Origin: an uncultured Candidatus Saccharibacteria bacterium | GTDB taxonomy: Bacteria > Patescibacteriota > UBA1384 > CAYGGE01 | DNA: 64,000 bases | Direction of reading: 5' to 3' | Assembly: GCA_964349485.1 (NCBI GenBank) | Contig: CAYGGE010000002.1 | Coordinates: 72,060 to 136,059, forward strand | Shown: positions 4,988-62,696 of the stretch, in pieces | Layout of the letters: each line of letters begins with the position of its first letter | Numbering within the stretch: position 1 is the first letter of the stretch | Notes under the pieces: generated by a model | Told to the model about the DNA's origin: nothing | Databases searched by the model: none | Seen by the model: the letters and a program-made list of their open reading frames with translations, nothing else | Made by a program: the position numbers and the translations under genes

Positions 4988-7887
4988 TGTTTAAGCCATT
5001 TGATACTCAGAAAAGTTTGCCTCAAGTAGAAGAAGAGGTGCTTAAGCTATGGAAAGAGCAAGGCACATTTGAACAATCGGTTGCTATAAGAAATGGTAGT
5101 GAACAATTCGTATTTTACGAAGGTCCACCAACCGCCAACGGCAAGCCGGGCATTCATCACGTCATGGCCAGAACGTTTAAAGACGTCATTTGTCGTTTTC
5201 AAACCATGAAAGGTAAACAAGTCATCCGCAAAGCCGGTTGGGATACCCACGGTTTACCGGTTGAATTACAAGTAGAAAAAGCCCTCGGTCTCAAAAATAA
5301 GCAGGATATCGAAGCCTATGGCATCGCAGAGTTTAATGCCAAATGCCGAGAATCTGTCTGGCAGTACAAAGAAGAGTTTGAGATTGTCACTGACCGCATG
5401 GGTTATTGGGTAGATCTATCCGACCCATATATTACCTACAGTAAAGAATATATCGAAAGCGTTTGGTGGGGTGTTAAGCAAGTTTGGGGAAAAGACTATA
5501 TTTATCAGGCTCACAAGGTTGTTCCATACTGTACAAGGTGTGGTACATCACTTTCCTTGGCAGAGGTTGCTCAAGGATATAAGAACGTGGAAGAGAACTC
5601 TGTCTACGTAAAGTTCAGAATTACGGACGACAGTTTACAGCTGCACGGTAAACCAGCGTTCGTTTTAGCCTGGACGACCACACCTTGGACTTTGCCGGGC
5701 AATGTTGCTTTGGCCGTAGGGGAGAGGTTCAGCTATGTTGCAGTCGAACACAACAGTGAAATATTAATTCTGGCCAAGGAGCGTCTAGCCGATCTAGTGA
5801 AAAAGGGTGTGGTTAGCGACAATATCATTGCGACTTATACGGGAAGTGATCTAGCGAACATTGAGTACGAGCCCCTATTTACTGATGCCCTTGAGGCAAA
5901 CGACAAAGCCTTTAAAGTATATACCGCAGATTTTGTAACTACTGAAGATGGCACCGGAATTGTTCATACAGCAGTCATGTACGGTGAAGATGACTACATT
6001 TTGGGCACAAAGATTGGTTTACCGAAACAACATACTGTCGATGAGCAAGGTAACTTTGTCGCTTCGGTAGGTCAAGGATTGGCCGGCCGTTACGTAAGGG
6101 ATACCGTGACCGAACAGATCATCTTGAAGTATCTTGAAGAAAAAAACCGGGTACTGAGAGTCCTTAAGTATAAACACGATTATCCTTTCTGCTGGCGATG
6201 CGACACTGCACTTTTGTACTACGCCCGAAACTCTTGGTTTATTCGTATCGATGATAAGCTTCGAGAACGACTGGTTGAGTTGAATCAGGAGATTAAGTGG
6301 GTGCCAGAGCATGTCAAAGTCGGTCGCTTTGGCAACTGGCTTGAAAATCTTCGCGACTGGGCGATCAGCCGAGAACGCTACTGGGGTACCCCGATGCCGA
6401 TTTGGGTTTGCGTGACCGAAAATACTCATCGTGCATGTATTGGTAGTATCGAAGAACTGGAATCACTCGCTACCGATAATTCAAAGCAGATGATTCGTAA
6501 TCCTGGGTTTGACCTGCATAAACCCTATATCGACGATATCGAATTAACGTGTCCTGACTGCGGCAAGATCATGAAACGCGTTCCCGAGGTCCTCGATGTG
6601 TGGCTAGATTCAGGTTCCATGCCCTTTGCCCAGTGGCATTATCCAAACCAGAATCAAGATCTTTTCAGTAAGCAGTATCCAGCAAACTTTATTAGTGAAG
6701 GGATCGATCAAACTCGAGGCTGGTTCAATTCACTTCATATTCTTTCGACAATCATCTTCGATTCGGTTGCCTATAAGTCAGTTATCACTCAGAACTTGGT
6801 CAACGATGAACATGGCAAAAAGATGTCGAAATCTAAAGGCAACATCGTCGATCCACTCCTGGTCATGAACGAATTCGGGGCCGATGCATTACGATTTTAC
6901 TTTCTGTCGGTTAATCGACCAGGCGATAATAAAAACTTCTCGACCAAAGCAGTTCAGGACATCTATCGCAAAAATATTGCAATATGGTGGAACGTCGTTA
7001 GCTTCTTCCTGACATATGCAAGTGTCGATAATTGGGAACCGGGACAAACGGGTGAGAAAACGCTACTCGATCACTGGATTCGGGCAAGAGTGGGGGAGAC
7101 CGCGTCTAAGATCGATGTTGCCCTAACTGACCTCGATACCTTTACGGCAGCTCGAAGCTTAACTGAGCTAATCGATGATCTATCAACCTGGTACTTACGT
7201 CGAAGCCGAAAACGACGTGACACAGCTTTTTACTCTACGCTCTATGAAGTGCTACGTAACGTGTCAAGGATCGCGGCGCCCTTCATGCCATTTACAGCTG
7301 AGGCAACATATCAGAGCCTCAAAGCTGATGGCGATGAAGACTCAGTACATCTAACTCAATACCCTTTACATATCGATCAAGATAAATCGATCATCGCAGA
7401 TATGAATATGGTTCGTGACATTGTACGCTTGGGTCACACTGCGCGTGCTTCTTACGGAATAAAACTGCGACAGCCACTATCGCGTATATCGGTTAACCGA
7501 TCGTTGTCAGCCGAATTAGAGGAGATCGTTGCCGACGAGCTCAATGTCAAAGAAGTTGTACACGAGCCTTCGCAACAGGAGCTTACGGTCACGATTGATC
7601 CAACTCTCACCCCCGAGCTCAAGAAAGAAGGTTTAGTTCGTGAGTTGATTCGTGAGCTGCAGGATGCTCGGAAGAAAGCGGGTTGCAGGCCGGGCGAACA
7701 GGTTATCATAGAATACGAAACTGAAAGTTTGGTGATGATCGATGTTATCCGCGACCACCAAGAGCTACTAGAAACCGAAACGACCAGTAAGATGGCTCCA
7801 AAAGTTGGGAACGCTCCTTATACATACGAGACTAATGTTTCTATAAACGATGAACCCCTTTGGTTAGGGCTCAAATATGCTCACTAG
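4987..7887 (+). CDS. ileS: Isoleucyl-tRNA synthetase
   Basis: HIGH-type motif PPTANGKPGIHHV, KMSKSKGN, and an editing-domain region. Length 966 aa. The ATG overlaps the rnhA stop (ATGA). Confidence 0.9.
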   Translation: MFKPFDTQKSLPQVEEEVLKLWKEQGTFEQSVAIRNGSEQFVFYEGPPTANGKPGIHHVMARTFKDVICRFQTMKGKQVIRKAGWDTHGLPVELQVEKALGLKNKQDIEAYGIAEFNAKCRESVWQYKEEFEIVTDRMGYWVDLSDPYITYSKEYIESVWWGVKQVWGKDYIYQAHKVVPYCTRCGTSLSLAEVAQGYKNVEENSVYVKFRITDDSLQLHGKPAFVLAWTTTPWTLPGNVALAVGERFSYVAVEHNSEILILAKERLADLVKKGVVSDNIIATYTGSDLANIEYEPLFTDALEANDKAFKVYTADFVTTEDGTGIVHTAVMYGEDDYILGTKIGLPKQHTVDEQGNFVASVGQGLAGRYVRDTVTEQIILKYLEEKNRVLRVLKYKHDYPFCWRCDTALLYYARNSWFIRIDDKLRERLVELNQEIKWVPEHVKVGRFGNWLENLRDWAISRERYWGTPMPIWVCVTENTHRACIGSIEELESLATDNSKQMIRNPGFDLHKPYIDDIELTCPDCGKIMKRVPEVLDVWLDSGSMPFAQWHYPNQNQDLFSKQYPANFISEGIDQTRGWFNSLHILSTIIFDSVAYKSVITQNLVNDEHGKKMSKSKGNIVDPLLVMNEFGADALRFYFLSVNRPGDNKNFSTKAVQDIYRKNIAIWWNVVSFFLTYASVDNWEPGQTGEKTLLDHWIRARVGETASKIDVALTDLDTFTAARSLTELIDDLSTWYLRRSRKRRDTAFYSTLYEVLRNVSRIAAPFMPFTAEATYQSLKADGDEDSVHLTQYPLHIDQDKSIIADMNMVRDIVRLGHTARASYGIKLRQPLSRISVNRSLSAELEEIVADELNVKEVVHEPSQQELTVTIDPTLTPELKKEGLVRELIRELQDARKKAGCRPGEQVIIEYETESLVMIDVIRDHQELLETETTSKMAPKVGNAPYTYETNVSINDEPLWLGLKYAH

Positions 7888-9539: not shown

Positions 9540-10193
9540 ATGTCGAAGCAATCCAATGTCAAAACTGATGAATTAGCTGATCACGAATCAGCCGCCGACA
9601 GCGGTCAACTTTTACATATGGTATCAAATGGTCAAGATCGACCGATGCTCAACCTCCAGAAGCAGGAAGGTCGTCGTGGCTGGTACGTGATTCATACTTA
9701 TGCTGGCTACGAGGATCAAGTAGCGGATAGTCTTCATCAACGTGCCGAATCATTCGCGATGCAAGATAAGATATTTAACATTATCGTGCCCAAAGAGAAA
9801 CAGATTGAAATTAAGAACGGTAAGCGCCGAACGGTTGAGAAACGCATCTTCCCGGGCTATGTCATGGTCGAGATGATCGTGACTGACGATTCCTGGTACG
9901 TGGTGCGTAATACGCCGAACGTGACTGGCTTCATCGGTCTGGGCGTACAACCAACTCCTATTGAACCAGAAGAGGTTGTACGGATCCAAAAAAGGATGGG
10001 TGTCGACGAGCCTAAGTATAAGATTGAGTTGAAGCCAGATGAACTGGTCAAGATCAACGACGGCCCACTTAAGGGCTTTGAAGGTAAGGTCACAGAAGTC
10101 GACGAAGATAAGGGTAAAGTTAAGGTCTCCGTCTCGATGTTTGGTCGTGAAACACCTGTCACCTTAGACTTTTTACAGGTTAAGAAGATATAA
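9540..10193 (+). CDS. nusG: Transcription antiterminator NusG, with an N-terminal extension of about 45 aa
   Basis: WYVIHTYAGYE (NGN domain), FPGYVMVEM, and C-terminal KOW region KINDGPLKGFEGKV. RBS GGAGG lies upstream. Confidence 0.85.
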   Translation: MSKQSNVKTDELADHESAADSGQLLHMVSNGQDRPMLNLQKQEGRRGWYVIHTYAGYEDQVADSLHQRAESFAMQDKIFNIIVPKEKQIEIKNGKRRTVEKRIFPGYVMVEMIVTDDSWYVVRNTPNVTGFIGLGVQPTPIEPEEVVRIQKRMGVDEPKYKIELKPDELVKINDGPLKGFEGKVTEVDEDKGKVKVSVSMFGRETPVTLDFLQVKKI

Positions 10194-14751: not shown

Positions 14752-14982
14752 ATGTCTAATATTGATGCAACAAATGGTGAGTGCTTGATCTGTGGCTTAC
14801 CTGGTACCGTTGGATTGCACTGCAGTGACCCCGACTGCCAGGGTTTAGTTGAAAAAATTGAAGATGGCAACTCTAAAGCGGAAGGCGAAGTAAGCGACCG
14901 CTACGACGATGATGATCTAAAAACAGACAACGTCGTATCCCTTGAAGAAGTGGCCGAAGAAGAATTGGCCGAAGACGATTAA
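14752..14982 (+). CDS. Small zinc-ribbon protein with an acidic C-terminal tail (hypothetical)
   Basis: 76 aa. CLICG...HCSDPDCQ four-cysteine motif, then a D/E-rich tail. RBS GGAGGAAAG precedes the ATG. Its stop abuts the cysS start. Confidence 0.45.
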   Translation: MSNIDATNGECLICGLPGTVGLHCSDPDCQGLVEKIEDGNSKAEGEVSDRYDDDDLKTDNVVSLEEVAEEELAEDD

Positions 14983-14989
14983 AACTATT

Positions 14990-16312
14990 ATGAAGCTCTA
15001 TAATACTCAGACTCGAAAAATTGATACGTTTACCCCGCTACACGACAAGCATGTTGGCATGTATACCTGTGGGCCGACGGTCTATGACCGGGCTCATATT
15101 GGCAATATGCGGACCTATCTCATGACCGATCTCTTGGTGAGGACACTCCGATTTCTGGGTTACGACGTGACTCACGTCATGAATATTACCGATATCGATG
15201 ATAAGACGATCAATCGCGCGGCTGAAGAGGGGATTTCGCTGTCAGAGTTAACGCAACGCTATGAAGAGCTGTTTTTCCGAGATCTAGCTCGATTGAAGAT
15301 TGAACTGCCTGATGTGACCCCACGTGCAACCGAGCATTTTCCCGAGATGAAACAGCTTTTAAACCAGTTGGTAGAAAAAGGGGCAGCCTACGAGAAGAAC
15401 GGTGAAGTCTATTTTGATATCTCGAAATTCAAGGATTACGGAAAGCTGAGCCTGCTCGACAAACGAGAGATTAAACCTGGTGCCAGAGTAGCCGTTGACG
15501 AATATGGCAAAGACGATGTCAACGACTTTGTCCTTTGGAAAGTCGACGACATTACTAAAACTCACGACAATGAACTAACAAAGAGCTCTGGTCGACCTGG
15601 TTGGCACCTAGAATGTTCCGCCATGAGCATGAAGTATCTCGGGCCAACGCTCGATATCCACGCCGGGGGGACCGATCTGCTCTTCCCGCATCATGAAAAT
15701 GAGATTGCCCAGAGTGAAGCCGCGACGGAGAAGCCTTTTGCTCGTTACTTTGTTCATGGCGAGTTTTTAACTGTTGAAGGCAAGAAGATGAGTAAGTCGC
15801 TAGGGAATATGTATACCATGCAGGAAATCATCGAACAGGGCGTTGATCCTCTGGCTTTTCGATACCTCATATTGACTACTCATTATCGAAGTAAACTGAA
15901 CTTTACCTGGGACTCGCTTGAAGCGGCTTCAAGGGCGCTTGAAGGTGTCCGACAGCTGGCGTTTCGTGACACGGAGAAGGAAGATCTACAGAAACAACAT
16001 GTTCTTGAACAGGGCTACGACGCCTTAAATAATGATCTCGATTTTCCCAAATTGCTCGCCCTATTGCATCAAACAGGGGATTATAGCCTATGGTTGGCTT
16101 TTGAACCTGTTTTAGGCCTTGGTTTGACCGAGAAAGCCACTGAGATTTCGACTGAAATTCAAGACCTCCTCAAGCAACGGGATGAAGCGAGACGAAATGG
16201 CGACTATGCACAGGCCGATCAGTACCGAGTCACTATTGCTACAAAAGGATACGCTATCGAAGACTTACCTGATGGAACCCAACGTCTCTTGCCAAAATTG
16301 CTTGACAAATAG
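14990..16312 (+). CDS. cysS: Cysteinyl-tRNA synthetase
   Basis: [14 protein letters not shown] start consensus, HIGN (HIGH), KMSKSLGN, and a zinc-binding Cys. The ORF caller's earlier ATG at 14942 would overlap the upstream gene. Confidence 0.9.
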
Positions 16313-16335
16313 CCGAGAGCGTGCTATTATGACGG

Positions 16336-16370
16336 GTACTGAATTAATGGTTTGACCAATAATTCAGTAC
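16336..16370. terminator. 15-bp inverted repeat hairpin downstream of cysS, with no U-tract
   Basis: gtactgaattaatgg-tttga-ccaataattcagtac with one mismatch. Confidence 0.35.
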
Positions 16371-16659
16371 TACTACAACTCAATAATCAGCGAACCAATA
16401 AGGAGGGTGCGCTAGTTAGCTGTTACTCCAATTCACCGGGGTGGTAGTGTCTACACTGGGAGATGTGGAGAGGATCCAATACTTTATAGGATCATTTACT
16501 CTGCCCCTAAACCTTGAAGACTGGTTGTTTCTAGGAGCTTGCTTCGAGCGATAACGAGACCCTTCCAAGGATCCTGGTGTGGACAGTGCCACTCCGTTTT
16601 GTATCTGAATATCACTTACTCATCGTAGTTTGGCTAAACTAGTGGCCGTTAACTAAGAA

Positions 16660-17289
16660 ATGGACTATATGAAAAACATTTTCATTGCCTTATTGTTAGC
16701 AACAACTATTCTCTTCAGTCTACCAGCTTCGGTCCGGGCCTCTTATTCTGGCCGGGCTAACACCGCGGCCCTCTTAGGTGCGGCCTATATGTATGCGAAT
16801 TATCAGGCCACTGGCAATGTTGGTTTGCCGTATATGGTTTACCCATTTGCTAGGTATGGTTATGGTGGCTCCAATTACTATCAACCGACCCAAACAATCT
16901 GCACCTGCACGAACTACCCAGTTTATAGCACCTACGCCAATTACGGCGGGTATGGTAACTATGCTGGTTATGGCGCTTATGGTTACGGCTCACCATATAT
17001 GTCATACCCCTACAGTTCAATGAACTATTCTGCTTACAACCACCCTATCTACAGTGGTTCTTATGGGTATCCTACTTCAGCATTGAACAATAATTTTTTG
17101 CTTTCTACACTGTATTACTACTCCCAAAACCGGACGTCAAATCTGGTCACTAATCCTGTCCAACCGGCGCCAGTTCGATCAGTAGAATCTCAATATGACT
17201 ACAACGGTACACCAAGCTATGGCTCAGGTTTCGATTACAACGGTACGCCAGACACTAGTTCCTGGGACTATAGCGGTCAAACTCATTAA
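16660..17289 (+). CDS. Secreted Tyr/Gly-rich low-complexity protein
   Basis: Signal peptide MDYMKNIFIALLLATTILFSLPASVRA. The mature part is dominated by Y, G, S and N, with repeated YDYNGTP(S/D) units. Confidence 0.6.
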   Translation: MDYMKNIFIALLLATTILFSLPASVRASYSGRANTAALLGAAYMYANYQATGNVGLPYMVYPFARYGYGGSNYYQPTQTICTCTNYPVYSTYANYGGYGNYAGYGAYGYGSPYMSYPYSSMNYSAYNHPIYSGSYGYPTSALNNNFLLSTLYYYSQNRTSNLVTNPVQPAPVRSVESQYDYNGTPSYGSGFDYNGTPDTSSWDYSGQTH

Positions 17290-17424
17290 ATTGTAATTAG
17301 CTCAGCTGGTCCTAACGAGGGCCAGCGAGTTGGTTATAATGACCACATTTGCCCTGCCGAGTGATCGGCGAGGCGTAACTTTACAGCTCATACGTTCCGG
17401 CGAAGCCGGAGAAGGAGGAAGGGG

Positions 17425-18399
17425 ATGCGCCCCAAATGGTTCGTTTTGCTGGTCTGGGGGATGTTTTTTCTTCTGATCAGCGTTGCGCCGGTGCATGCAG
17501 ATGTTGCCGGTGGCGGATTTACCGCTATTCGTCGGGAGTTCCACCGGGAGACCGGTGACTTTCGTCTGGTGGCCGAACTCTACGCGCCCGGATACCGCGA
17601 CGCCTACTGGGCGTGGCTTTCCGGGAGTGAGGAGCTTCTCAAGGCGCCGAACGTCGGTTCCGTGAAGCTCTCGTTCATCTTGGTAACCGAAGACGGTAAG
17701 CCCGTCCGATACGCCAAGTGGACGAACGATCAGCGTAAGGAGACTAAAGACTGGGAGGATCTGAAATATGGTCCTAACGGCTTTGAGCTCGACTATCCGC
17801 TCGATCGCGCCCGCCCCGGTGTCCACACGGTTCATTTCGTGGGCGGGATCAAAGATGGGCAGCGGAACTATACCAAGGTCTGGCTGCTCGTCGATCTAAC
17901 AATCGGTGGCCGCAAGAAGACCAGGTATCAGACCGAGGCCCTCCAGTTCATGGTTTACGACCTCCCCGTTGGGCGCAATCGCGTCGACCCACAGCTGCTT
18001 GTTAACTCCCAAGAGGAGATGGCAGCCGGTGGATCGTCGCTGATCGGCCCGGCAATCGAGGAAGACGAACCTGAACCGGCTGACAAGAAAGGAAAGCGTC
18101 AGCCGACAGATACGCCGTCACGACAGGAGCGATCCAACCTGATCCTCAGTTTCAACGGCTTTACCTCCTGGGCGCATGTCGTCTGGGACACAGGTAAGGA
18201 ATCGTGGTGCGAGGTCAGCGGTACGAAGACTGTCACAGTGCCTCGCGATGCTCGGGCGGTCGACGTCTACATTGTCAATTCCGATGGGGAACAGGGCGGC
18301 TACCGTATCAAGAATAGCGGAGCTCTCCGGAGCTTCGATGTTCCGACGGATGGTCGCCTGCTCACTATCACTGTCAATCGCACCCGCCGCGGCGGGTAG
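17425..18399 (+). CDS. Secreted hypothetical protein encoded in the GC-rich island
   Basis: Signal peptide ending VHADVAGG. Codon usage is GC-rich. No recognisable family. Confidence 0.55.
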   Translation: MRPKWFVLLVWGMFFLLISVAPVHADVAGGGFTAIRREFHRETGDFRLVAELYAPGYRDAYWAWLSGSEELLKAPNVGSVKLSFILVTEDGKPVRYAKWTNDQRKETKDWEDLKYGPNGFELDYPLDRARPGVHTVHFVGGIKDGQRNYTKVWLLVDLTIGGRKKTRYQTEALQFMVYDLPVGRNRVDPQLLVNSQEEMAAGGSSLIGPAIEEDEPEPADKKGKRQPTDTPSRQERSNLILSFNGFTSWAHVVWDTGKESWCEVSGTKTVTVPRDARAVDVYIVNSDGEQGGYRIKNSGALRSFDVPTDGRLLTITVNRTRRGG

Positions 18400-18405
18400 A
18401 AGGAT

Positions 18406-19734
18406 ATGGGAAAGAAAATGAAGCGCCTTTTATGGTTGCTTTCCCTCCTGCTTGCCGCGGGAGGTGTCTGTACACCGGTGCAGGCAGAGGACTTGGCGCC
18501 ACGCCTCGACGAAATAAGGTGGCGCCTCGCTGGTTATGTCTCAGCAGGGGCGCTTCAGCCTCACGAACCGGCAATCATCGAAGAGGAGGTGGTGAATAAG
18601 GGCTACACTATCTCAACGATACCAACGGGTACTGCGACGCCGAACTGGTGCACCCCCCGTAAGGGTGCCCGAGCCTTCCAGTACAAGCCGGGAACCTACC
18701 GTACGCCCTATCCGATCCAGGTCGCAGTCTTCGACGACAAGCGGCTGGTATCGGTACGGGCATTCATGGTCGGTTCCAAGGGATGTTTCAACCTCGTCGG
18801 TTGGACCTCACCAGTAGCCGCTCCTGCTCCACCGCCTCCCTGCAAGGGTGAGGTGGAGATCTGCAAGAAGCTTCGGGACGGGAGAGGCGAGCTGGCCAAC
18901 CACCAGTTTCGCCTCCTCGGCCCGAACGGGTTCGACGCAGTGCTCATTACCGACGCCAGCGGCGCTGCCAAGAAGGGCGATCTTTCCCTCGGGGAATACA
19001 CCCTTCTTGAAGTTCCACGCGAACACTACAAGCGCGTTGAACCGCAGATGCCGTACCGCTTCACTCTGTCGCGCGAGCGCCAGAAGGAGGTGGTGATGGT
19101 AGTCAACGAGTACTGCCCGCCAGTTGTGCAGCCCCCTCCACCGCCTCCCTGCAAGGGTGAGGTGGAGATCTGCAAGAAGCTTCGGGACGGGAGAGGCGAG
19201 CTGGCCAACCACCAGTTTCGCCTCCTCGGCCCGAACGGGTTCGACGCAGTGCTCATTACCGACGCCAGCGGCGCTGCCAAGAAGGGCGATCTTTCCCTCG
19301 GGGAATACACCCTTCTTGAAGTTCCACGCGAACACTACAAGCGCGTTGAACCGCAGATGCCGTACCGCTTCACTCTGTCGCGCGAGCGCCAGAAGGAGGT
19401 GGTGATGGTAGTCAACGAGTACTGCCCGCCTCCTGCGCCGCAACTACCTGATTTCGAGGGCACCAGCACGGTGCCAGAAATTCCGGTAGTAGTGGAGGCA
19501 CCCGCTCCTCCCGCAAGAGAGAAGAGCGCCTACCGGACCGGCCGACCTAGCAAGACGGTCGATCGGCAGGTTGTCGCTGGCGGTGGTGGATACAGTCGAG
19601 CCACTGAACGACGGGTGATCAGTCGGCACAACCATCATTTCATCCATCGGCACCGTCCTCACAGTAAAGGGATCAAAACCCCTGACGACGATGAAGATGG
19701 TGACACCCCTACGGGGCGGTTGCCGCCCCGTTAA
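18406..19734 (+). CDS. Secreted protein with two identical Cna-B/SpaA-like (prealbumin-fold) domains and a basic His-rich tail
   Basis: Signal peptide present. The domain has the pattern FRLLGPNGFDAVLITDASGAAKKGDLSLGEYTLLEVPREHYK (F.L...G...T.ASG...L..G.Y.L.E...P..Y), duplicated exactly. A PPPPC motif precedes each copy. Confidence 0.6.
   Translation: MGKKMKRLLWLLSLLLAAGGVCTPVQAEDLAPRLDEIRWRLAGYVSAGALQPHEPAIIEEEVVNKGYTISTIPTGTATPNWCTPRKGARAFQYKPGTYRTPYPIQVAVFDDKRLVSVRAFMVGSKGCFNLVGWTSPVAAPAPPPPCKGEVEICKKLRDGRGELANHQFRLLGPNGFDAVLITDASGAAKKGDLSLGEYTLLEVPREHYKRVEPQMPYRFTLSRERQKEVVMVVNEYCPPVVQPPPPPPCKGEVEICKKLRDGRGELANHQFRLLGPNGFDAVLITDASGAAKKGDLSLGEYTLLEVPREHYKRVEPQMPYRFTLSRERQKEVVMVVNEYCPPPAPQLPDFEGTSTVPEIPVVVEAPAPPAREKSAYRTGRPSKTVDRQVVAGGGGYSRATERRVISRHNHHFIHRHRPHSKGIKTPDDDEDGDTPTGRLPPR
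18827..19429 (+). repeat. Exact tandem direct repeat: 2 x 294 nt with a 309-nt period, inside the CDS
   Basis: 18827-19120 and 19136-19429 read identically nucleotide for nucleotide. They are separated by a 15-nt divergent linker. Confidence 0.85.
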
Positions 19735-19967
19735 ATTGCTGAAAGGCAGAACATAGCTGAGGGCCGGAGGGTCCGTTGCCATGGGGGAGAGAGATTCTTT
19801 CCCCCTGGCCAGTCCATCTTTCGAAGCAAACGAGAAGTTTGATCTCTTGACTCCGCTCGAGACGACAAAGTCGATTTCCGTTTTCTCCGAAAGAGATTAA
19901 TCGCTCATGTCACGTAGTGGTAAACTACCAAACATAGCAATAAATATTCATAACCAAAGAAGGAAAA

Positions 19968-22772
19968 ATGCACATGATGCAATTTCTCAATAAGACTAAA
20001 TCGGTCATCTACCTGCTTCTTGCTGCAGTCCTTTTTGGCCAGGCAATAAGTTATGCCAATGTCACGAAAGCAAGTATTGACGGTCCCGTTCAAGTGTTGA
20101 CCGCCGTTCAAAACTATACTCATGACACGGCTATGTTGCCATCGGTTAACGCACAAGTGGATGAACAGGTGCAATTCCGGGTTTTCGTCAAGAATACGTC
20201 CGGCGATGAACGATTAAATGGGGTTCGCGTTCGAACCGAGCTTGATCCATTCTTAGAGTACGTTGCAGGTTCAACAAAGTTGGAGTTCCACACCGCCCAA
20301 TTCGATGATATGCCGGATGGTATTGTTAGTGGCGGACTAGATTTACCTGAGTTTCCTCGACATAAGACAGCCTACTTATACTTCCTAGCCAAGGTTAAGA
20401 ATGGCGCTTCCGGTACTTTGACACAGATATCGCACGTGACTTACCAAAACTTCCACGCCACCGATACTACAGCTCGTGTCGTCGTTGGTGGCAGCAATGA
20501 AGTCGTGCCGCCCCGTATGCTTGTCGATACGGCTGTAATCAATTTGGGAACCAACCCGAACCCGAGCGATCCGAGCGCTGATTGGCGTGATCGGGTGATG
20601 GCAGAAGTTAATGATACGGTGGGTATCTCTATTGAAGTGCAAAATGACCATCCGACTGCTACTAATTCTCGACTTAAAGAGGTCACGGTTAAGGCTAGCA
20701 AGAACGATATCAACGGCGGATTCCGGGTTCGAGGTACAGCCTCGGCTGATAACCACGAAGATCGAATCAACGATGCATTTATCGATACAAACGCCAATAT
20801 CTTGAACTATGTGAGTGGTTCGGCGCGTACATACTTTTACGATGCCTCCGGAACTCTTGTCTCTCTGCCCCTTGGTGACGCAGTTATGAGTAATGGGGTC
20901 AGTGTTGGGGATATCGATGCCGGTCGTCTGGCTAAAGCCAAATACGTCTACTTCGAGATGCGCTTAGCCGATCGACAGACTAGCGGTACGATACAGATCG
21001 AAAAGCACTTGTACAAAAATGGTGGCTGGGTACAAAATCCTGATCCGGATAAACAGGTCGACTTCGTCTTTACGTTACCGAGTGGCACTGAACTAACTGT
21101 TCGAACCGATAATCATGGTTCAGCGGTCATGGATAACCTGCCCTTTGGTACCTATACTGTTCGTGAGATTGTCCCAGTCAGTTATGAGTTGGTTGAACTA
21201 ACTCCATCACAATTCACTCTTGACGAAGGTAATCTTGTTCAACAGGTAGTGGCACAGAATAAACAGCTCATCGTTACAGATGACAAAGGTAACCTGACCA
21301 TTGTCAAATTCATCGACACAGACGGTGATGGGGTTCAGGATGCAAATGAAGGTCCTCAAGCTGGTGTAACCTTTACAGTGAGTGGTCCAAACAACTATTC
21401 GGTCACCCGGGTAACCAATGCCGATGGTCATATTGAATTGACCGACTTGGCGCTTGGAGCCTACACGGCTACTGAAACGGTTCCTTTGGGCTATACGGTG
21501 ACAACAGCAAACCCACAAAATAGTGAAGTCATAGCTAACCAAACCCGAACCTTAGCCTTTGGTAATAAACCAATTGTGGTTACACCTAAGGGTAATCTTC
21601 AGATCATTAAGTTCGAAGATAAGAACGCCAACCGGGTCCAAGACGCTGGTGAACCATTCATGGCCGACGTGGTCTTTACCGTAACCGGTCCAAACGGTTA
21701 CAGCGTGACGCGTAACACAGCGGACAATGGTCAAATCAATCTAACTGATCTGCCTTTTGGTTCATACGAGGTGACTGAACAAGTGCCAAGTGGTTTCCGT
21801 GTGACTACCGACAACCCGCAAACTAGTGTGGTGGAAGCTAACGACGCGGCTGTTGTTCGATTTGGTAATCAACAGATCCCTACTGAAACGCACAAGGGTA
21901 GCCTGAAGATTATCAAGTTTGAAGATAAAAATGGTAATCGTGAATTCGATTCAGACGAACCGACTATGAAAGCTATCGCCTTTAAGATTACCGGACCTGC
22001 CGGTTTCAGTCTAACTAAACTAACCGATGATCACGGGGTTATCTTACTAGAGAACCTTGACCTCGGTACCTACACCGCGACTGAAAATGTTCCTGAAGGA
22101 TATCGATCAACCACCGATAACCCACAGAGTGGCCAAGTAACTGTGAACGTCATGAAGGTCTTGCGGTTTGGTAACCAGAAGGTAGTCATCGTTACGCCGA
22201 CCCCAACTCCTACGTCTCCTAAATTGCAACTGACTAAGTACGTCGGTAACGCCAGTCGTAACGAAGCGACCGACAAGACGGCCACTAATGCTTCGGCTGG
22301 TCAGACAGTTAGTTGGAGACTACTAGTTAAGAGTTTGGGTGATGTTACACTCAAACAACTAAAACTCGAAGACACCTTACCGGCTAACGTCAAACTAGTT
22401 GGCGATATTGTCATTACAAGAGACGGTCAAAAAGCCAAATTGCTTGGCTTAACTCGCGACGCGGTATTGATAGGTGACTTAGCTAAAGGTCAAGAAGTAA
22501 CGATTGAGTTCCAAACTGTGATCAGCGCTGATGTGGCTTGTCACAACGAGCTAACGAATAACGCAGCCGCTTATGCTGATAACCACGATCGGGTCTACAG
22601 CCAAGCCAAGGTCTTGACCGAGTGTGTGATAGCCGATCCGGCCCAACAGGCGCTCGTCCCAACCGGTGCAAACGAAGCCCTACTGTCCTTGGTTCTTTCT
22701 GGACTAAGTGTCATGGGCTACACCTACACAAGACAGCGAAAAACTCTCGACAAGCTTATTGCTCGATTCTGA
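19968..22772 (+). CDS. Cell-surface protein with a sortase-type sorting signal (LVPTG), four SdrD-B/Cna-B-like repeats and DUF11-like end domains
   Basis: Signal peptide present. There are four repeats of about 100 aa with the pattern (K)G(N/S)L.I.KF.D.(N/D)G...D..E.....V.F.VTGP.G(Y/F)S.T..T.D.G.I.L.DL..G.Y...E.VP.G(Y/F). The C-terminus is LVPTG, then a hydrophobic stretch, then RQRK. Confidence 0.7.
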   Translation: MHMMQFLNKTKSVIYLLLAAVLFGQAISYANVTKASIDGPVQVLTAVQNYTHDTAMLPSVNAQVDEQVQFRVFVKNTSGDERLNGVRVRTELDPFLEYVAGSTKLEFHTAQFDDMPDGIVSGGLDLPEFPRHKTAYLYFLAKVKNGASGTLTQISHVTYQNFHATDTTARVVVGGSNEVVPPRMLVDTAVINLGTNPNPSDPSADWRDRVMAEVNDTVGISIEVQNDHPTATNSRLKEVTVKASKNDINGGFRVRGTASADNHEDRINDAFIDTNANILNYVSGSARTYFYDASGTLVSLPLGDAVMSNGVSVGDIDAGRLAKAKYVYFEMRLADRQTSGTIQIEKHLYKNGGWVQNPDPDKQVDFVFTLPSGTELTVRTDNHGSAVMDNLPFGTYTVREIVPVSYELVELTPSQFTLDEGNLVQQVVAQNKQLIVTDDKGNLTIVKFIDTDGDGVQDANEGPQAGVTFTVSGPNNYSVTRVTNADGHIELTDLALGAYTATETVPLGYTVTTANPQNSEVIANQTRTLAFGNKPIVVTPKGNLQIIKFEDKNANRVQDAGEPFMADVVFTVTGPNGYSVTRNTADNGQINLTDLPFGSYEVTEQVPSGFRVTTDNPQTSVVEANDAAVVRFGNQQIPTETHKGSLKIIKFEDKNGNREFDSDEPTMKAIAFKITGPAGFSLTKLTDDHGVILLENLDLGTYTATENVPEGYRSTTDNPQSGQVTVNVMKVLRFGNQKVVIVTPTPTPTSPKLQLTKYVGNASRNEATDKTATNASAGQTVSWRLLVKSLGDVTLKQLKLEDTLPANVKLVGDIVITRDGQKAKLLGLTRDAVLIGDLAKGQEVTIEFQTVISADVACHNELTNNAAAYADNHDRVYSQAKVLTECVIADPAQQALVPTGANEALLSLVLSGLSVMGYTYTRQRKTLDKLIARF

Positions 22773-29418: not shown

Positions 29419-31890
29419 GTGGAACAGGATATCTACACAACTGCCCAGCCGTCGTTGATTGGCCCGGTTATCCTGGTCCTTTTAGCTTTAGCCGTTACCT
29501 TCTTGCTGGTAGCCTATTTCTGGTATTTACGTCGACTCAAATTTAAACGAGCGGCCAACTGGGTCATGCTCTTGGTCTCTGTCCCTAAGGAATCGAGCCA
29601 CGGCAAAGACGAACAGCAGAAGCCTCAGGAATGGCGCGAAGTGGTCTCGGTAGCAGAACAGATGTTTGCCAGCTTTGGTTCGCTTTACAGTACTCATCCA
29701 ATAGATTTAATCTTTGGTCAGACTCATCTATCGTTCGAAATTGTGGTTAGAAATAATGAGATATTATTTTACGTCGGCTGTTCTCGGGCGAATCGTGAAG
29801 TAGTCGAGAAGACTATCTATGCCTTCTATCCCGCTGCAATCATTGAAGAGAGCAGAGAGTTTCGGATTTTTGATAAATCATTCCAAGTTCGCAGCGCCAC
29901 ACTTCGTCTGGCGAAATACTATGTTTACCCAATCAAGAGCTATAAAACCCTTGAGGCGGACCCGTTAAACAACATCACCAATGCACTATCCAAAATGGGG
30001 GAGCAGGGGAGAGCAACAATCCAGTTTATTATCCGTCCGGCTAGTGATCGGTGGCGCTTGCGGGTTGAAGAGGCAAGCCATCTGATTGGCGTGGGTCAAG
30101 GCTATGATGTCCATCACAACTCTACCATCCGCATGTTTCGGGAAATAAAACGAGTCATCAGCCCGCCTAAAGAAGAAGCCTCAACAAACCGAATGCGGAC
30201 GCCGATTCAAGAAGAAAAACTAAAAAATCTTTCTGAAAAAGCTAGTACCTCAGGCTTTCATGTAGTTAGTCGCATAATCGCCGCCGCCCCGACAGCCGCC
30301 GAGGCTGATGCCTATCTTGCCAATATTGTTGCCGCCTTCTCCCAATTCCAAAACCCAGCCGCTAATGGCTTTAAGTATGAAAAGATGAGTGGCGAACGGT
30401 GGTTTGTAACCGACTTCGTCCTTCGAGCCTTCACCGGACGCTGGATGATCCTTAATACCGAAGAACTCGGCTCGTTGTTTCATTTCCCAAATCAATTTGT
30501 CGATACTCCCAATATTCGATGGTTGCGTGCTAAACGGGCTCCGGCACCGCCCAGCCTGCCCAAAGAGGGGCTCTATATTGGCGATAACATGTTTAGGGGC
30601 GATAAGACGAATATTTTTCTTAAGAAAGAAGACCGTCGTCGACACCTTTATATGATTGGTATGACTGGCACGGGTAAAACGACATTGTTTGAAAACATGA
30701 TCCTACAGGACATCAAAGCTGGCCACGGTATCTGCTATATCGATCCCCATGGTGATACAGCAGAAGGTTTGCTGTCTAAGATACCTCGTGAGAGAGCCGA
30801 AGATGTCATCTACTTTGATCCAGGCGATCTTGACCGACCGTTCGGATTGAACATGCTTGAGTGGAAGACGGCCGAAGAAAAGGACTTTTTGGTTCAAGAG
30901 ATTATTCAAATCTTCTACAAACTGTTTGACCCGAACCAAACTGGTATTGTCGGACCACAATTTGAACACTGGTTGCGTAACGCCGCCTTGACGCTTATGG
31001 ATTGGCCTGAAGGTGGAACCTTAATTGAGATCCCTCGGCTATTCACTGACGATGCTTATCGTGACTTGCGAGTCGAGAAACTTCAAGATCCTGTCGTAAA
31101 AGCCTTCTGGACACAACAGATGGCCAAAACTGCCGACTTCCATAAGTCGGAGATGTTCAATTACTTCATCTCCAAATTCGGTCGGTTTATGACAAACACG
31201 ATGATGCGCAATATTATCGGCCAACCCAAGGGTTCGTTCGATATTGCCGAAGCGATGAATAGTGGGAAGATCCTCATCGTCAACCTTTCCAAAGGTAAGA
31301 TGGGTGAGGTCAACGCAAACTTGATTGGCATGATATTAGTCGCCAAGATTTACACCGCCGCCATGGCTCGGCACAATATTCCTGAAGAACAACGTAAAGA
31401 CTTCTATCTATACGTCGACGAGTTCCAGAATCTGGCGACCGATACATTTGCCTCAATTCTCTCCGAGGCTCGAAAATATAGACTCGCTTTGTCTATAACC
31501 AACCAGTACATCTCCCAGCTCCAAGAGCCAATCCGTGATGCAATCATTGGGAACGTAGGAACTATCATCTCCTACCGAATCGGAGTGCCTGACGCTGAGT
31601 TCTTAGAGAAAGAGTTTCAGCCAGTCTTTAATTTTCACGACCTGAATAATCTTGAACGCTACAACGCGTACATTAAATTGCTAGTCGATAATTCACCGAG
31701 CCGACCGTTTTCGGTGAAAATTAATAAAGATGATACACCGTCGATTCCCGAGATTGGCCACGGTGTCCGTCAGTTATCTCGGTTACGCTACGGTCGCGAT
31801 CGCGGTCTCGTCGACGCCGAAATCTACGAACGGACCAAGATTATGGACGCACCGGCCGCCAAGGGGACCGATCCGCTATCACCAAGTTAG
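29419..31890 (+). CDS. Membrane-anchored FtsK-HerA superfamily ATPase, closest to type IV coupling proteins (VirD4/TraG/TrwB-like 'T4SS DNA-binding domain' proteins); paralog 1
   Basis: N-terminal TM helix. An unassigned domain of about 350 aa. Walker A GMTGTGKTT, then YIDPHGD, Walker B FYLYVDEFQN, and ARKYRLALSITNQYISQL...IGNVGTIISYRIG. Confidence 0.6.
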   Translation: MEQDIYTTAQPSLIGPVILVLLALAVTFLLVAYFWYLRRLKFKRAANWVMLLVSVPKESSHGKDEQQKPQEWREVVSVAEQMFASFGSLYSTHPIDLIFGQTHLSFEIVVRNNEILFYVGCSRANREVVEKTIYAFYPAAIIEESREFRIFDKSFQVRSATLRLAKYYVYPIKSYKTLEADPLNNITNALSKMGEQGRATIQFIIRPASDRWRLRVEEASHLIGVGQGYDVHHNSTIRMFREIKRVISPPKEEASTNRMRTPIQEEKLKNLSEKASTSGFHVVSRIIAAAPTAAEADAYLANIVAAFSQFQNPAANGFKYEKMSGERWFVTDFVLRAFTGRWMILNTEELGSLFHFPNQFVDTPNIRWLRAKRAPAPPSLPKEGLYIGDNMFRGDKTNIFLKKEDRRRHLYMIGMTGTGKTTLFENMILQDIKAGHGICYIDPHGDTAEGLLSKIPRERAEDVIYFDPGDLDRPFGLNMLEWKTAEEKDFLVQEIIQIFYKLFDPNQTGIVGPQFEHWLRNAALTLMDWPEGGTLIEIPRLFTDDAYRDLRVEKLQDPVVKAFWTQQMAKTADFHKSEMFNYFISKFGRFMTNTMMRNIIGQPKGSFDIAEAMNSGKILIVNLSKGKMGEVNANLIGMILVAKIYTAAMARHNIPEEQRKDFYLYVDEFQNLATDTFASILSEARKYRLALSITNQYISQLQEPIRDAIIGNVGTIISYRIGVPDAEFLEKEFQPVFNFHDLNNLERYNAYIKLLVDNSPSRPFSVKINKDDTPSIPEIGHGVRQLSRLRYGRDRGLVDAEIYERTKIMDAPAAKGTDPLSPS

Positions 31891-53748: not shown

Positions 53749-55221
53749 TTAAGAGAACCGACTAGCTGTCCCCCAGCCTACTAAACCCAGTCCAGCGACG
53801 ATCATAGCAGATGCGATTTGCCAGCCGTTAGACGGCTCAACCTCCTTATTTTGACCCAGAACTGTGGGATCTGAATTCGCCATCTTGTGATCGTCTGCTT
53901 GGCTTGGCTTCTCGGTTGCTGGCAGTGCTGTGGCTAAGCTCACCTCTACGGCAGTTGGTTGTGCAATATCCCTTACGGTTGAGACTATCTGGTTAAGCAC
54001 TGTTCTCTCCGATGGTTGAGGCGATGGCGTTACGGTTACGAAGGCAACCACAGTTGGGGCTGGCGTGGGTGTAACCGAAGGATTGAGCGATGGAGCCGGT
54101 GAGGGTGAGGTGGCTGGTGTGGGGGTAGAGGTAGAGATTACTGTTGGAGTTGGCGAGGTTTTGATAGTGGGTGTTGGACTTGGCGTAGGTGGCTGCGTTG
54201 CTGTGACAGTTGGCGAAGGACTAGCGGTCGGTTCCTCAGTCGGAAATTGACTTGGCGCGGGAGTAGGCGTTGGTTCCGCACTCGGCGTTGACGATGGATT
54301 GGGTGATGTTGTGACAATCACCGCTACCGGTAAAGCTTTGCCGGCAAAGGCAATTGCGGCAAATGAGCTAGTAAACGAGTCAGGTTCGTTACCTGGTCCC
54401 CAACTAACGCCCCCACTCTCATTCTGTAGTGTAGTCAGATAATCAATCGGATTAGCCCCATTGCGCACCCAACTGTATGGATCTTCGCCGAGTGAACGAA
54501 TTGCGCTGATTACCCAAGCGGTACTTGAACCGTCGGCCATAGAACTAGCCACAAACGGGAAACCACCCGAATCTTTTTGAAGGGAGATCAAATAATCACG
54601 GGCGCCCTCACGATCGTAAGTGTCGGTCCAACCGCGATGTAAGGCCAGTTCAAGCGCTTGGATGGCGACTGCTGTGTTATTACTATCCCCATTGCCCTCA
54701 CTACTCCAGCTGAACGAACCGTTAGGCTGTTGATGACTGACCAGATAATTCAGGCTGTTAGACACCACTGGATCAGTGATCGACTCATTGGCCGCAATTA
54801 AGGCCAAGATGCCGAAAATATCATCATTGAGTAGCTCAGGCGAGCCGATTTGATTGTCTTGAGTCTTAGACTTTAAGGTGGCGACGAGGTCGGTGTTGCC
54901 AAAGTTTTTCGGATCTCGACCACCGGCGATGACTGCTAAAATAGTCCGTTCGAGGTCAGTTGCGGGCGCGTTTGCCATGTCACCAAGGTTATCTTCAAGA
55001 TATGCCACGGTTTGATTGCTACTTAGTCCGTTGGCTGACAGAGCCTGTAAGGCCCAACTGGAAAAGCCGACCCCACCAATGCTCCCACTTGGCTCACGCA
55101 AAGAAAGTAGGTAGTTGGCAGCCTTTTCTGCTTGTGGTGCACTGGTCTCGGTCGCTACTACATAGCTTGAGATACCGAGCGTCAAAACGATGAGGAGTGA
55201 AATTATAAATAGTTTTTGCAT
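53749..55221 (-). CDS. Surface protein with prenyltransferase/squalene-hopene-cyclase-type alpha-alpha-toroid repeats, a Pro/Thr-rich stalk and a C-terminal TM anchor
   Basis: Signal peptide present. Repeats QQPNGSF, LQKDSGGF, and QNESGGVSW (the Q-x-x-x-G-x-W/F repeat class). A PT-rich linker of about 110 aa. C-terminal hydrophobic anchor. Confidence 0.55.
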   Translation of the reverse strand: MQKLFIISLLIVLTLGISSYVVATETSAPQAEKAANYLLSLREPSGSIGGVGFSSWALQALSANGLSSNQTVAYLEDNLGDMANAPATDLERTILAVIAGGRDPKNFGNTDLVATLKSKTQDNQIGSPELLNDDIFGILALIAANESITDPVVSNSLNYLVSHQQPNGSFSWSSEGNGDSNNTAVAIQALELALHRGWTDTYDREGARDYLISLQKDSGGFPFVASSMADGSSTAWVISAIRSLGEDPYSWVRNGANPIDYLTTLQNESGGVSWGPGNEPDSFTSSFAAIAFAGKALPVAVIVTTSPNPSSTPSAEPTPTPAPSQFPTEEPTASPSPTVTATQPPTPSPTPTIKTSPTPTVISTSTPTPATSPSPAPSLNPSVTPTPAPTVVAFVTVTPSPQPSERTVLNQIVSTVRDIAQPTAVEVSLATALPATEKPSQADDHKMANSDPTVLGQNKEVEPSNGWQIASAMIVAGLGLVGWGTASRFS

Positions 55222-55281
55222 GAAGGTATATTTATTTTATTCGGTTGGAGGGAGGGCGAGAGGCCCTGCCTCCCGCCCTCA

Positions 55282-55731
55282 TTACGTGTAAGGGCCGTCT
55301 GGGTTGGTGTTCATGAGCAGTACCTGCTGATGAGGTTCCACTATCTGTGTCGATAGCCCAGCACCTGCTCCGAGAATGAAGTACACTGGACTAGCCAGAT
55401 CGACTGGGCGTAGCTGTCTCGGCCCGACGAACAAGCACCAATACTTTCCGGTAGCTGGGTTGTTTTCCATCCCACGAGCACTGGTCAGCATGGTTCCGTT
55501 AACCGACCAATATTGATAGCGAAACACACCGTACTGCACTCGATATTGGCGGTGCATGGACCACAATGCGTCCAGGATTGTGCCACCGCGGTTAATGTAG
55601 ACAGTCCTCGTCAGAGGCCGACCTTCACCTGTGTCGATGGTGATTCGGACGGCCTGCTTGCGGGTCAAGGCCTGACAGGCGCTACTTAGTAAGCTCGACA
55701 GGCATGCGCAAAATAAAAACCGGCGGGTCAT
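55282..55731 (-). CDS. DUF4430-like (transcobalamin-like beta-grasp) secreted protein
   Basis: Signal peptide present. Pattern T.LDAL...Y.V.Y....VN...YW...VG......G...V..GD.V.F. Confidence 0.45.
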   Translation of the reverse strand: MTRRFLFCACLSSLLSSACQALTRKQAVRITIDTGEGRPLTRTVYINRGGTILDALWSMHRQYRVQYGVFRYQYWSVNGTMLTSARGMENNPATGKYWCLFVGPRQLRPVDLASPVYFILGAGAGLSTQIVEPHQQVLLMNTNPDGPYT

Positions 55732-55852
55732 CGTCTTTACCTTTCGACGACAACGGTCCCCTATTGAACCGTTAAGGTGCCCCGAAATAGGATTACTGCT
55801 TCGGGCAAGGAGAAGGAGAATGAATATCCCCTACCCACTTTCCCGATTCAGT

Positions 55853-56488: not shown

Positions 56489-56891
56489 GCCCAGGCTGAT
56501 CGCAATGGGGCTAATGGAACTAGATTTGTTTAGTTGATTGTTTATGGTCTGCTCCTAGGAAAGTGGTAAACAAAAAACCTATCTTGAGATAGGCAGATAA
56601 GAACTCCGTTAAAAAAAACGAAAACTCATCTAATGACCTGTCTCGAGGTTTAGAGGGGTTAACCAAACTGGTTTTCTGGCTTAGCGGCAGCTATTTCGAG
56701 CTATGCGAGAAACCTCGTTAAAACGGTAATTTCTCACATAGTTCGAAATAATTCTGACGATTTACAGTAGCGGACCTGTCCTTGATTTACACAAGGTTCC
56801 CAATCGTTTGGTTATAACATGAGGTTAAGGTGCACTTCCTACAGTACTTACTATATATAGCACTGTCAATGATAAATTATCCACAATATAG

Positions 56892-61523: not shown

Positions 61524-61600
61524 TCTATTGCATCTAGGCTGATGGGGTATATCAGCAACGTCCCGTCCGGAGTTTCCGGACGGGCGTTTTATTTATTTAA

Positions 61601-62608: not shown

Positions 62609-62696
62609 ATCCCCTCCTTTAGTTCTTCAATGGAGTCTTAATTGTAACCCCAACAGATCATGCTTAGCAACCGCGGGTGAATTTTCTTCTAGAGGG

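Follow-up and report, generated by a model that had tools for sequence, protein, structure and literature searches.

A GC-rich surface-protein gene pair, possibly of high-GC ancestry, in a conserved slot of Berkelbacteria-like genomes

Bacteria of the Candidate Phyla Radiation (CPR, or Patescibacteria) are thought to live attached to other microbes, and both the proteins through which they make contact and the hosts themselves are mostly unknown. A 64-kb stretch of contig CAYGGE010000002.1 (hereafter the window, meaning the whole stretch of DNA that was analysed) contains two adjacent open reading frames (ORFs), ORF2 (324 aa, positions 17425-18399, + strand) and ORF3 (438 aa, or 442 aa from an alternative ATG at 18406; 18418-19734, + strand), which are the two genes of a GC-rich stretch at ~17,300-19,890 that we refer to as the block. 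They are flanked upstream by the gene for a Tyr/Gly-rich secreted protein (209 aa, 16660-17289, + strand; hereafter Tyr-rich) and downstream by the gene for a large surface protein (934 aa, 19968-22772, + strand; hereafter the adhesin). An original prediction, made from the sequence alone, suggested that the block was acquired horizontally and inserted between these two neighbours. The locus raises the question of whether the block is a recent arrival or whether its composition has an older origin. We find that, unusually, lineages of a CPR clade that diverged deeply have all kept the block GC-rich, and we see an even chance that the block is an old cassette of high-GC ancestry, encoding two surface proteins, that has been repeatedly replaced within a conserved slot.

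The 200-nt GC profile of the window rises in a sharp step at ~17300 and falls in another at ~19850, and a two-change-point fit delimits the block at 17351-19815 (~17300 to ~19890 by eye), with a GC content of 0.596 inside and 0.461 outside. Over 17290-19900 the GC content is 0.587, compared with 0.473 for the remaining window. Among 1-kb bins, only those at 17-20 kb attain 0.53-0.59 (window mean, 47%), and the block is the top 2.6-kb window in the 64 kb (0.589, versus a mean of 0.476 and a standard deviation of 0.025), the runner-up among non-overlapping windows reaching 0.533. The 60-nt hand counts behind the original prediction were reproduced, both within the block (0.617 at 17521-17580 and 0.583 at 18421-18480) and in the comparison samples (0.517 at 5101-5160, 0.433 at 20041-20100 and 0.550 at 30001-30060). 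ORF2 has a GC content of 0.585 and a GC content at third codon positions (GC3) of 0.683, and ORF3 has values of 0.605 and 0.675, while the remaining 50 ORFs of the window average 0.481±0.024 for GC and 0.482±0.053 for GC3. Sliding-window GC and codon usage thus agree on the predicted compositional discontinuity (GC3 of 0.68 versus 0.48±0.05), which extends to the 135-nt noncoding leader of the block (GC 0.54, versus 0.42±0.05 for 26 other intergenic regions).

The high GC content does not derive from amino-acid composition alone. When ORF2 and ORF3 were recoded with the codon preferences of the host, the predicted GC content was only 0.524 and the predicted GC3 0.475, compared with observed values of 0.596 and 0.667, so the amino acids encoded do not explain the block. 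The excess divides into a synonymous part (~60%) and a part from amino-acid content (~40%), the latter reflecting more R, P, G and V and less I, L, S, N and Q; in the synonymous part, codons ending in G or C are favoured in all 18 degenerate amino-acid families. The original prediction had itself named an alternative, that genes for secreted or highly expressed proteins are generally GC-rich in this genome. This is not so: the neighbouring secreted-protein genes are ordinary (Tyr-rich, GC 0.451 and GC3 0.457; adhesin, GC 0.475), as are the ribosomal-protein genes of the window, and neither expression level nor export therefore explains the high GC content. These findings support a foreign-like composition of the block.

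Relatives of the locus were found by a CysS scan of species-representative genomes and by protein and profile searches with ORF2. The CysS scan yielded one true relative, L012, a metagenome-assembled genome of an uncultured Candidatus Berkelbacteria bacterium, and one irrelevant match (L013). By its housekeeping genes, L012 is the closest relative of the window (identities of 85% for TopA, 75% for CysS, 83% for PrfB and 88% for YbaB). ORF2 had six homologues among 5.8e9 proteins (41-56% identity), and the profile search returned 14 hits among 1.84e9 representatives. The contigs that carry these homologues form three groups: six short contigs (L006-L011); L015 (28.7 kb), which shows full synteny from ileS to prfB at lower identities (TopA 65%, CysS 62%, PrfB 69%); and L014 (12.9 kb, 65% GC), which is discussed separately below. 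Full context is available for the window, L012 and L015 only, the other relatives being contigs of 1.7-3.5 kb. A protein search with ORF3, in which Pro-rich words crowded the candidate list, returned only its own protein and the one-repeat variant of sister assemblies. Alignment of the adhesin N-terminus against the genome collection gave no match, and a protein search with the same region gave one unrelated DUF11 protein whose contig (L017) is not syntenic. The Joint Genome Institute (JGI) metagenome collection, scanned with the N-terminal domain of ORF2 and with a small Cys-rich protein of the locus, gave no match either, so this clade is evidently missing from that collection. By title and abstract, none of the Berkelbacteria papers listed seemed to deal with this locus, and a literature search on the sample accessions gave no result.

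The window, L012 and L015 share one gene order: topA, recR, the small Cys-rich protein gene, cysS, the Tyr-rich gene, the GC-rich pair, the large SpaA/DUF11 adhesin gene and prfB, with an extra 236-aa gene between the adhesin gene and prfB in L012. A GC-rich pair lies between the Tyr-rich gene and the LVPTG adhesin gene in five of the five contigs that reach both flanks (L006, L007, L011, L012 and L015), although in L011 only the first codons of the downstream adhesin homologue are visible. The upstream flank, with its Tyr-rich homologue, is visible in L008 and L009, and L010 retains only the last 25 codons of an upstream gene; these three shorter contigs show no more than the upstream side or stop within the pair. 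All eight relatives possess a GC-rich pair, and across the nine loci, window included, its GC content is 0.57-0.68 and its GC3 0.59-0.79, compared with a flank GC3 of about 0.37-0.56. For gene 1 and gene 2 of the pair, respectively, GC3 is 0.70 and 0.73 in L012 (flanks 0.41-0.50), 0.77 and 0.79 in L015 (flanks 0.37-0.56), 0.64 and 0.63 in L006 (flanks 0.37-0.45), 0.71 and 0.75 in L007 (flanks 0.40-0.44), 0.70 and 0.69 in L008 (flank 0.46), 0.77 and 0.72 in L009 (flank 0.40), 0.68 and 0.67 in L010 (with too little flank for a value) and 0.61 and 0.59 in L011.

Synonymous sites are saturated in every comparison, in the flanks as well as in the cassette (dS, the number of synonymous substitutions per synonymous site, from 1.1 to >3.9, with 31-53% identical codons at conserved residues). 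A single recent transfer into this genome, slowly losing its signature, therefore does not explain the GC excess, which must have been maintained or renewed. No empty site was seen among the eight relatives, a thin sample that includes two relatives with full context. A recent insertion in this genome is contradicted by these data, since the relatives (L012, L015 and L006-L011) carry the pair or a GC-rich equivalent of the same composition, in the same slot wherever their contigs reach, an outcome that the original prediction had itself named as refuting it. The broader prediction of horizontal acquisition survives in part: the foreign-like composition and the high-GC homologues speak for it, while the presence of the pair in eight of eight relatives speaks against insertion as a recent island.

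We then compared the content of the slot between lineages. Nucleotide homology between the window and L012 is lost over 16935-21210, and the flanking proteins remain recognisable (68% identity for the Tyr-rich N-terminus and 49-61% for the adhesin). Gene 1 of L012 (421 aa, GC3 0.70) has no detectable similarity to ORF2 (BLAST E>0.03), and a distant homology between the two was rejected (hhalign probability 3.7%). As the ORF2 N-terminal domain (N-domain) retains 50% identity in L015, a more distant relative, and 41-47% in L014, replacement or differential loss is likelier for gene 1 of L012 than divergence beyond recognition. Gene 2 is modular. The N-domain type found in gene 2 of the window recurs in L008 and L009 (65-69% identical), and L012, L010 and L015 share another type (47-54%). 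L010 pairs an ORF2-type gene 1 with the L012-type gene-2 N-domain (47% identical), and in gene 2 of L015 an L012-type N-domain (54%) is joined to ORF3-like SpaA domains. Such SpaA domains are present in gene 2 of the window, L007 and L015, and not in that of L006, L011 or L012; similarity to the ORF3 C-terminus is found in L006, L007, L011 and L015, and most gene-2 proteins, including those of L014, end in a basic, Gly- or His-rich tail preceded by a C-terminal stretch that is alike among them. The closest pair of cassettes from different loci has 72-75% protein identity. Judging from these alignments, the content of the slot turns over, and gene-2 modules are shuffled between lineages.

The only ORF2 homologues found outside the syntenic Berkelbacteria-type loci reside on L014 (JGI 3300086673, Ga0683783_0000935), a contig with a uniform GC content of 65% and a GC3 of ~0.85. 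Positions 4049-8995 of L014 hold a tandem array of three ORF2-type paralogues (448, 217 and 321 aa), two of which are each followed by a gene for a gene-2-like protein, and the neighbouring genes (inositol-phosphate-synthase-like, methyltransferase, Macro, Nramp-like and CNNM) are typical of a larger genome. In a neighbour-joining tree of the N-domain (~190 columns, 12 sequences), gene 1 of L015 joins the three L014 paralogues (52-59% identity) in a group with 99% bootstrap support, apart from the other Berkelbacteria copies (39-56% identity). Codon usage follows a similar pattern: that of the window cassette correlates with L014 at r of 0.87-0.90 and with its own genome at 0.60, and the cassettes of the window, L012 and L015 correlate at 0.81-0.89 with one another, at 0.83-0.92 with L014 and at 0.32-0.60 with their own hosts. 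For the L015 cassette, a mixture of host and L014 codon usage fits better than a plain GC tilt (log-likelihood difference, ΔlnL, of 15-20). As a separate observation, the gene-2-like proteins of L014 contain Pro-rich PPV(V/I)NV repeats and a long, metal-binding-looking tail rich in His, Asp and Lys, and the Berkelbacteria copies are without this tail.

Both proteins of the window pair begin with a basic n-region, a hydrophobic core and an AxA-like site (…APVHA/DV in one and …TPVQA/ED in the other), as read by eye, and these features are kept in the homologues, which bears out the predicted signal peptides. In ORF2 the signal peptide is followed by an N-terminal beta-rich domain (residues ~40-200), an acidic/Pro-rich linker (~210-235) and a C-terminal beta-sandwich (~238-320), and the protein ends in …NRTRRGG, with no sorting signal. 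ORF2 has no match in Pfam or NCBIfam and represents an orphan family. An AlphaFold (AF2) model built from 14 sequences (pLDDT, the predicted local confidence score, of 74) likewise contains two beta domains with the acidic/Pro-rich linker disordered between them, and a Foldseek comparison of this model to the PDB gave only generic immunoglobulin-like matches (E at least 1.7e-3, template-modelling score at most 0.21).

In ORF3, a signal peptide leads into an orphan N-domain, which is followed by two SpaA/prealbumin-like domains, a Pro-rich segment, a C-terminal motif and a basic/His-rich tail. The original prediction of Cna-B-like domains in this protein is upheld in the form of two SpaA domains (Pfam PF17802; 54.1 bits against a cutoff of 23.1, E = 1.8e-14, two stretches), a family that we take to be of the same fold class as Cna-B. 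Read from the sequence, the SpaA domains have a G.Y.L.E…P..Y core and a V.V.N end and contain candidate isopeptide residues (Lys, Asn/Asp and Glu, in EICKK…LLEVP…VVNEY), and Cys-Pro-Pro linkers bracket the two domains. Neither the N-domain nor the C-terminal motif of ORF3 matches a described family in Pfam or NCBIfam, and the C-terminal motif is common to gene 2 of other loci. No LPXTG-type sorting signal can be read in ORF3, which ends in …KTPDDDEDGDTPTGRLPPR, without a hydrophobic segment. The downstream neighbour, which had been predicted to be a sortase substrate, fits that description: the 934-aa adhesin has SpaA, SdrD_B and DUF11 domains and a C-terminus made up of LVPTG, a hydrophobic stretch and the basic tail RQRK. 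Among the genes within ±10 kb, the range covered by Pfam annotation, no sortase domain was found. Comparison with the relatives gave ratios of nonsynonymous to synonymous substitution (dN/dS) of ~0.13-0.25 for the + strand ORFs, which are therefore real coding genes. The four genes (Tyr-rich, ORF2, ORF3 and adhesin) probably build or decorate the cell surface, with the middle pair as the likely most variable part of this surface locus. The - strand also contains long antisense ORFs, both in the window (17302-17835, 18808-19443 and 19444-19782; 177, 211 and 112 aa) and in L012 (12843-13901 and 14318-15064), with an overall range of 112-352 aa. These are most likely by-products of GC3-rich coding, because stop codons are AT-rich and the + strand ORFs have dN/dS well below 1.

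The two SpaA domains of ORF3 are encoded by a tandem duplication that was identified in a repeat search, with one domain in each 309-bp unit (18827-19135 and 19136-19444, + strand). The units differ at seven positions, all of them among the final 13 bases. Five assemblies of the window's own population, from the European Nucleotide Archive (ENA) and the Logan metagenomes (L001-L005), are 100% identical apart from repeat number; the sister assemblies with a single unit encode a 335-aa product, and in three Logan contigs the sequence stops at 18856, where the repeat has barely begun. The discrepancy reflects either collapse of the repeat during short-read assembly or a population in which the number of units varies.

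Hairpins mark both ends of the block, as originally predicted. Directly after the stop codon of the Tyr-rich gene, a long hairpin occupies 17290-17340 (+ strand; stem of ~23 bp, with no U-tract after it), and the previously noted gctggtcc/gggccagc pairing (17305-17312/17319-17326) is the tip of this stem. The relatives have an equivalent hairpin after their Tyr-rich genes. The whole leader (17290-17436) folds at -66.9 kcal/mol (z = -5.7) and includes a second hairpin, GCCCUGCCGAGUGAUCGGCGAGGC, at 17351-17374 (+ strand). A third structure lies at 17395-17424 (+ strand), where both folding and conservation point to a CCGGC-loop-GCCGG stem-loop (17395-17411) that abuts and overlaps the Shine-Dalgarno run GGAGAAGGAGGAAGGGG (17408-17424). 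This hairpin recurs upstream of the ORF2-type genes of L006-L011 and L015 and of the 321-aa paralogue of L014 (L014 ~7190-7238), and is absent before the unrelated gene 1 of L012. As it accompanies ORF2-type genes, including one in L014, homology of the cassette reaches into its noncoding leader. The stem-loop may be a translational or mRNA-stability element. At the other end, a G-rich, terminator-like hairpin without a clean U-tract, GGGGGAGAGAGATTCTTTCCCCC, follows ORF3 at 19783-19805 (+ strand), and GC content drops after it. A GGGG(G)AG…CTCCCC hairpin is found at the same relative position in every locus showing that end (L006, L007, L011, L012 and L015). Given the conservation of both the leader hairpin and the G-rich end hairpin, what is inherited or moved is apparently the entire small operon, including its leader and the closing hairpin. 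Rfam contained no match in or beside the block. In L015 (~9875-9890), nine consecutive G (GGTTGGGGGGGGGCGAACC) lie within the hairpin that follows the Tyr-rich gene; they have no equivalent in the window, and homopolymers of this type can cause phase variation.

How, then, did the block come to be where it is? An assembly artefact, in which a GC-rich fragment of another organism was chimerically joined into a metagenome contig, can be dismissed for practical purposes. The window does appear to be metagenome-derived, being 100% identical to ENA and Logan metagenome contigs, with one of its proteins also on a 150-kb NCBI contig; however, its junctions recur, with 100% identity, in five assemblies made independently from the same population, which excludes a chimeric assembly, and equivalent architecture recurs in assemblies from other samples and species. 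We also regard as very improbable the recent horizontal acquisition of an island inserted between two pre-existing surface-protein genes. Atypical composition and codon usage would fit such an event, as would the sharp, hairpin-marked intergenic boundaries, but the slot has no known empty counterpart among the relatives and is filled in lineages whose CysS is only 62-75% identical. The signs of mobility are missing as well. The original prediction's remark that no integrase is present was confirmed for all genes within ±10 kb, where Pfam annotation of the identical contig L001 showed no integrase, recombinase or transposase domain, and ORF2 and ORF3 contain no such domain in Pfam or NCBIfam. 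The 64-kb window has no tRNA or tmRNA, no direct repeats bracket the block (the only long repeat being the 309-bp tandem duplication), and no ORF2 relatives were found in viral-contig, plasmid or phage collections, leaving a phage- or plasmid-borne cassette unsupported. Of five features of integrative genomic islands, then, atypical composition and codon usage was found and the other four were not. A diversity-generating retroelement target was likewise rejected, as there is no reverse transcriptase domain within ±10 kb and no pair of template and variable repeats.

In the interpretation to which we give even chances, that of an old and repeatedly replaced cassette, the block would be a compact two-gene unit (structured leader, ORF2, ORF3 and G-rich hairpin) for two Sec-exported, beta-sandwich-rich proteins, held in a fixed slot of a four-gene surface locus (Tyr/Gly-rich, ORF2, ORF3 and LVPTG adhesin) between cysS and prfB in Candidatus Berkelbacteria-like bacteria (CPR/Patescibacteria). 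Its ancestry would be high in GC, the relatives outside the syntenic loci being tandem copies in a 65%-GC genome; it would have been in the slot before the lineages diverged, and a GC-rich gene pool would since have supplied its content anew, by replacement or re-import, on more than one occasion. Repeated replacement would account for a 57-68% GC pair in genomes of 41-51% GC and for differing genes between close relatives, and it draws on the observed composition step, conserved slot, dS saturation, non-homologous gene 1 of L012, modular gene 2 and high-GC homologues. Replacement probably proceeded by recombination in the conserved flanks, the transfer presumably running into these genomes, and the cassette would plausibly serve cell-surface or host-contact variation under diversifying selection. 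Going further, the slot might be an integrase-free landing pad at which a GC-rich surface module is repeatedly taken up or exchanged from a high-GC bacterium like that of L014, possibly the physical host; this we think unlikely, but if true, the cassette would bear witness to host attachment or surface mimicry, might even bring these about, and would betray the identity of the host through its codon usage. Several observations weigh against repeated replacement. The data revealed neither recombination breakpoints nor donor alleles, nor any near-identical cassettes shared between backgrounds; only three genomes offer full context; what looks like replacement of gene 1 in L012 could instead be differential loss, had the ancestral cassette been larger; and the grouping of L015 with L014 could reflect transfer in the opposite direction or L014 being an unrecognised high-GC relative. 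The L014 cassette genes have a GC3 of 0.75-0.87, slightly under that of its other genes (0.85-0.89), and for the window and L012, a one-parameter GC tilt ties with the donor mixture (ΔlnL of at most 2.4). The last two of these also favour a native pair, inherited vertically as part of the surface locus, in which a local force keeps GC content high, and so do the sameness of the slot and the GC step in eight of eight relatives despite saturated dS, the lack of mobility signatures and the match between the GC-rich stretch, from the leader to the hairpin after ORF3, and an apparent single transcription unit. Candidate forces include selection on the mRNA (leader, transcript stability or translation rate), a hot spot of GC-biased gene conversion and mutation bias of the transcription unit, and the 65%-GC homologues would be exports from Berkelbacteria or ancient relatives. 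We consider this vertical origin, the main rival, possible but rather doubtful. The equally fast-evolving secreted flank genes are not GC-enriched and neither are the ribosomal-protein genes; gene 1 of L012 is unrelated to ORF2 yet GC-rich; and codon usage in L015 is specifically L014-like, by the likelihood difference given above. Gene conversion, moreover, acts on heteroduplex in homologous DNA and not on non-homologous inserts, and we know of no mechanism that raises GC3 by 0.2 over exactly one operon.

Other features of the window were seen outside the block. Between cysS and the Tyr-rich gene (16302-16605, + strand) lies a conserved, structured noncoding element. It starts with a near-consensus sigma-70-type promoter (TTGACA-17-TATTAT, 16302-16330) that overlaps the cysS stop, followed by a noncoding core of ~170-200 nt that is 81% identical to L012, compared with 71-73% for the flanking coding DNA, and that is kept in L015. 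RNAalifold of the core, with three sequences, gave a closing helix of ~24 bp with inner hairpins and compensatory changes in 12 of 50 pairs. The element matches no Rfam family and could be either an undescribed small RNA or an extended, structured leader belonging to the Tyr-rich gene. The small Cys-rich protein encoded in the gap between recR and cysS (76 aa, 14752-14982, + strand) combines a CxxC…C…C motif with a strongly acidic tail; its identity is ~62-69% in L012, varying with the alignment, and ~45% in L015, and it has no Pfam match and appears to be specific to this clade. Milder GC elevation (0.52-0.54) occurs at 53749-56839 and 59937-63991. The former is a minus-strand gene set behind a cobalamin riboswitch (56649-56839) that encodes a DUF4430 protein, an unassigned 149-aa ORF (GC3 0.61) and a prenyltransferase-like protein, and the latter contains genes for a LeuA-like enzyme, a BNR-repeat protein and an ABC-2 transporter; both may be other accessory or acquired segments.

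The locus is a compact, conserved yet hypervariable set of surface-protein genes, whose middle pair looks foreign and GC-rich in one lineage after another. Should the cassette be exchanged with a host lineage, it would offer a sequence-based handle on host range. If its GC content is instead maintained in place, the locus is a natural case of one operon standing 12-20 GC points above its genome after synonymous saturation, which would be useful for testing amelioration, biased gene conversion and selection at the mRNA level. Overall, this is a modest comparative-genomics observation and not a new kind of system.

Among known systems, the classical horizontally acquired island, which ameliorates passively after transfer (the Lawrence and Ochman model), resembles the block in its composition break, foreign-like codons and surface-protein cargo, and differs in that the block has no empty site in relatives, no direct repeats and neither a tRNA nor an integrase. 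A GC excess that persists past the saturation of synonymous sites is, moreover, not what passive amelioration after a single transfer predicts. The closest analogy is with the O-antigen and capsule clusters of Enterobacteriaceae, replaceable surface loci of atypical composition between conserved flanks. Similar to these clusters, the locus has a fixed slot, conserved flanks, a shared atypical composition, non-homologous content in close relatives, surface-exposed products and no integrase. Unlike them, its cassette is GC-rich and not AT-rich, has only two genes, encodes proteins other than polysaccharide-synthesis enzymes and belongs to a CPR bacterium; three of the four defining features of such clusters were found here, and allelic exchange we infer. 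With the sortase-anchored SpaA/Cna-B adhesins and pilins of Gram-positive bacteria, ORF3 has in common its two PF17802 domains and its position beside an LVPTG protein with SpaA, SdrD_B and DUF11 domains. It differs from them in having neither a sorting signal nor a membrane anchor, in the lack of a sortase within ±10 kb, and in an N-domain and C-terminal motif that match no described family, next to an ORF2 without described relatives. Taken together, these comparisons describe the block as a compositionally atypical surface-protein cassette, possibly of horizontal ancestry, in which ORF3 belongs to the SpaA-domain class and does not qualify as a sortase substrate.

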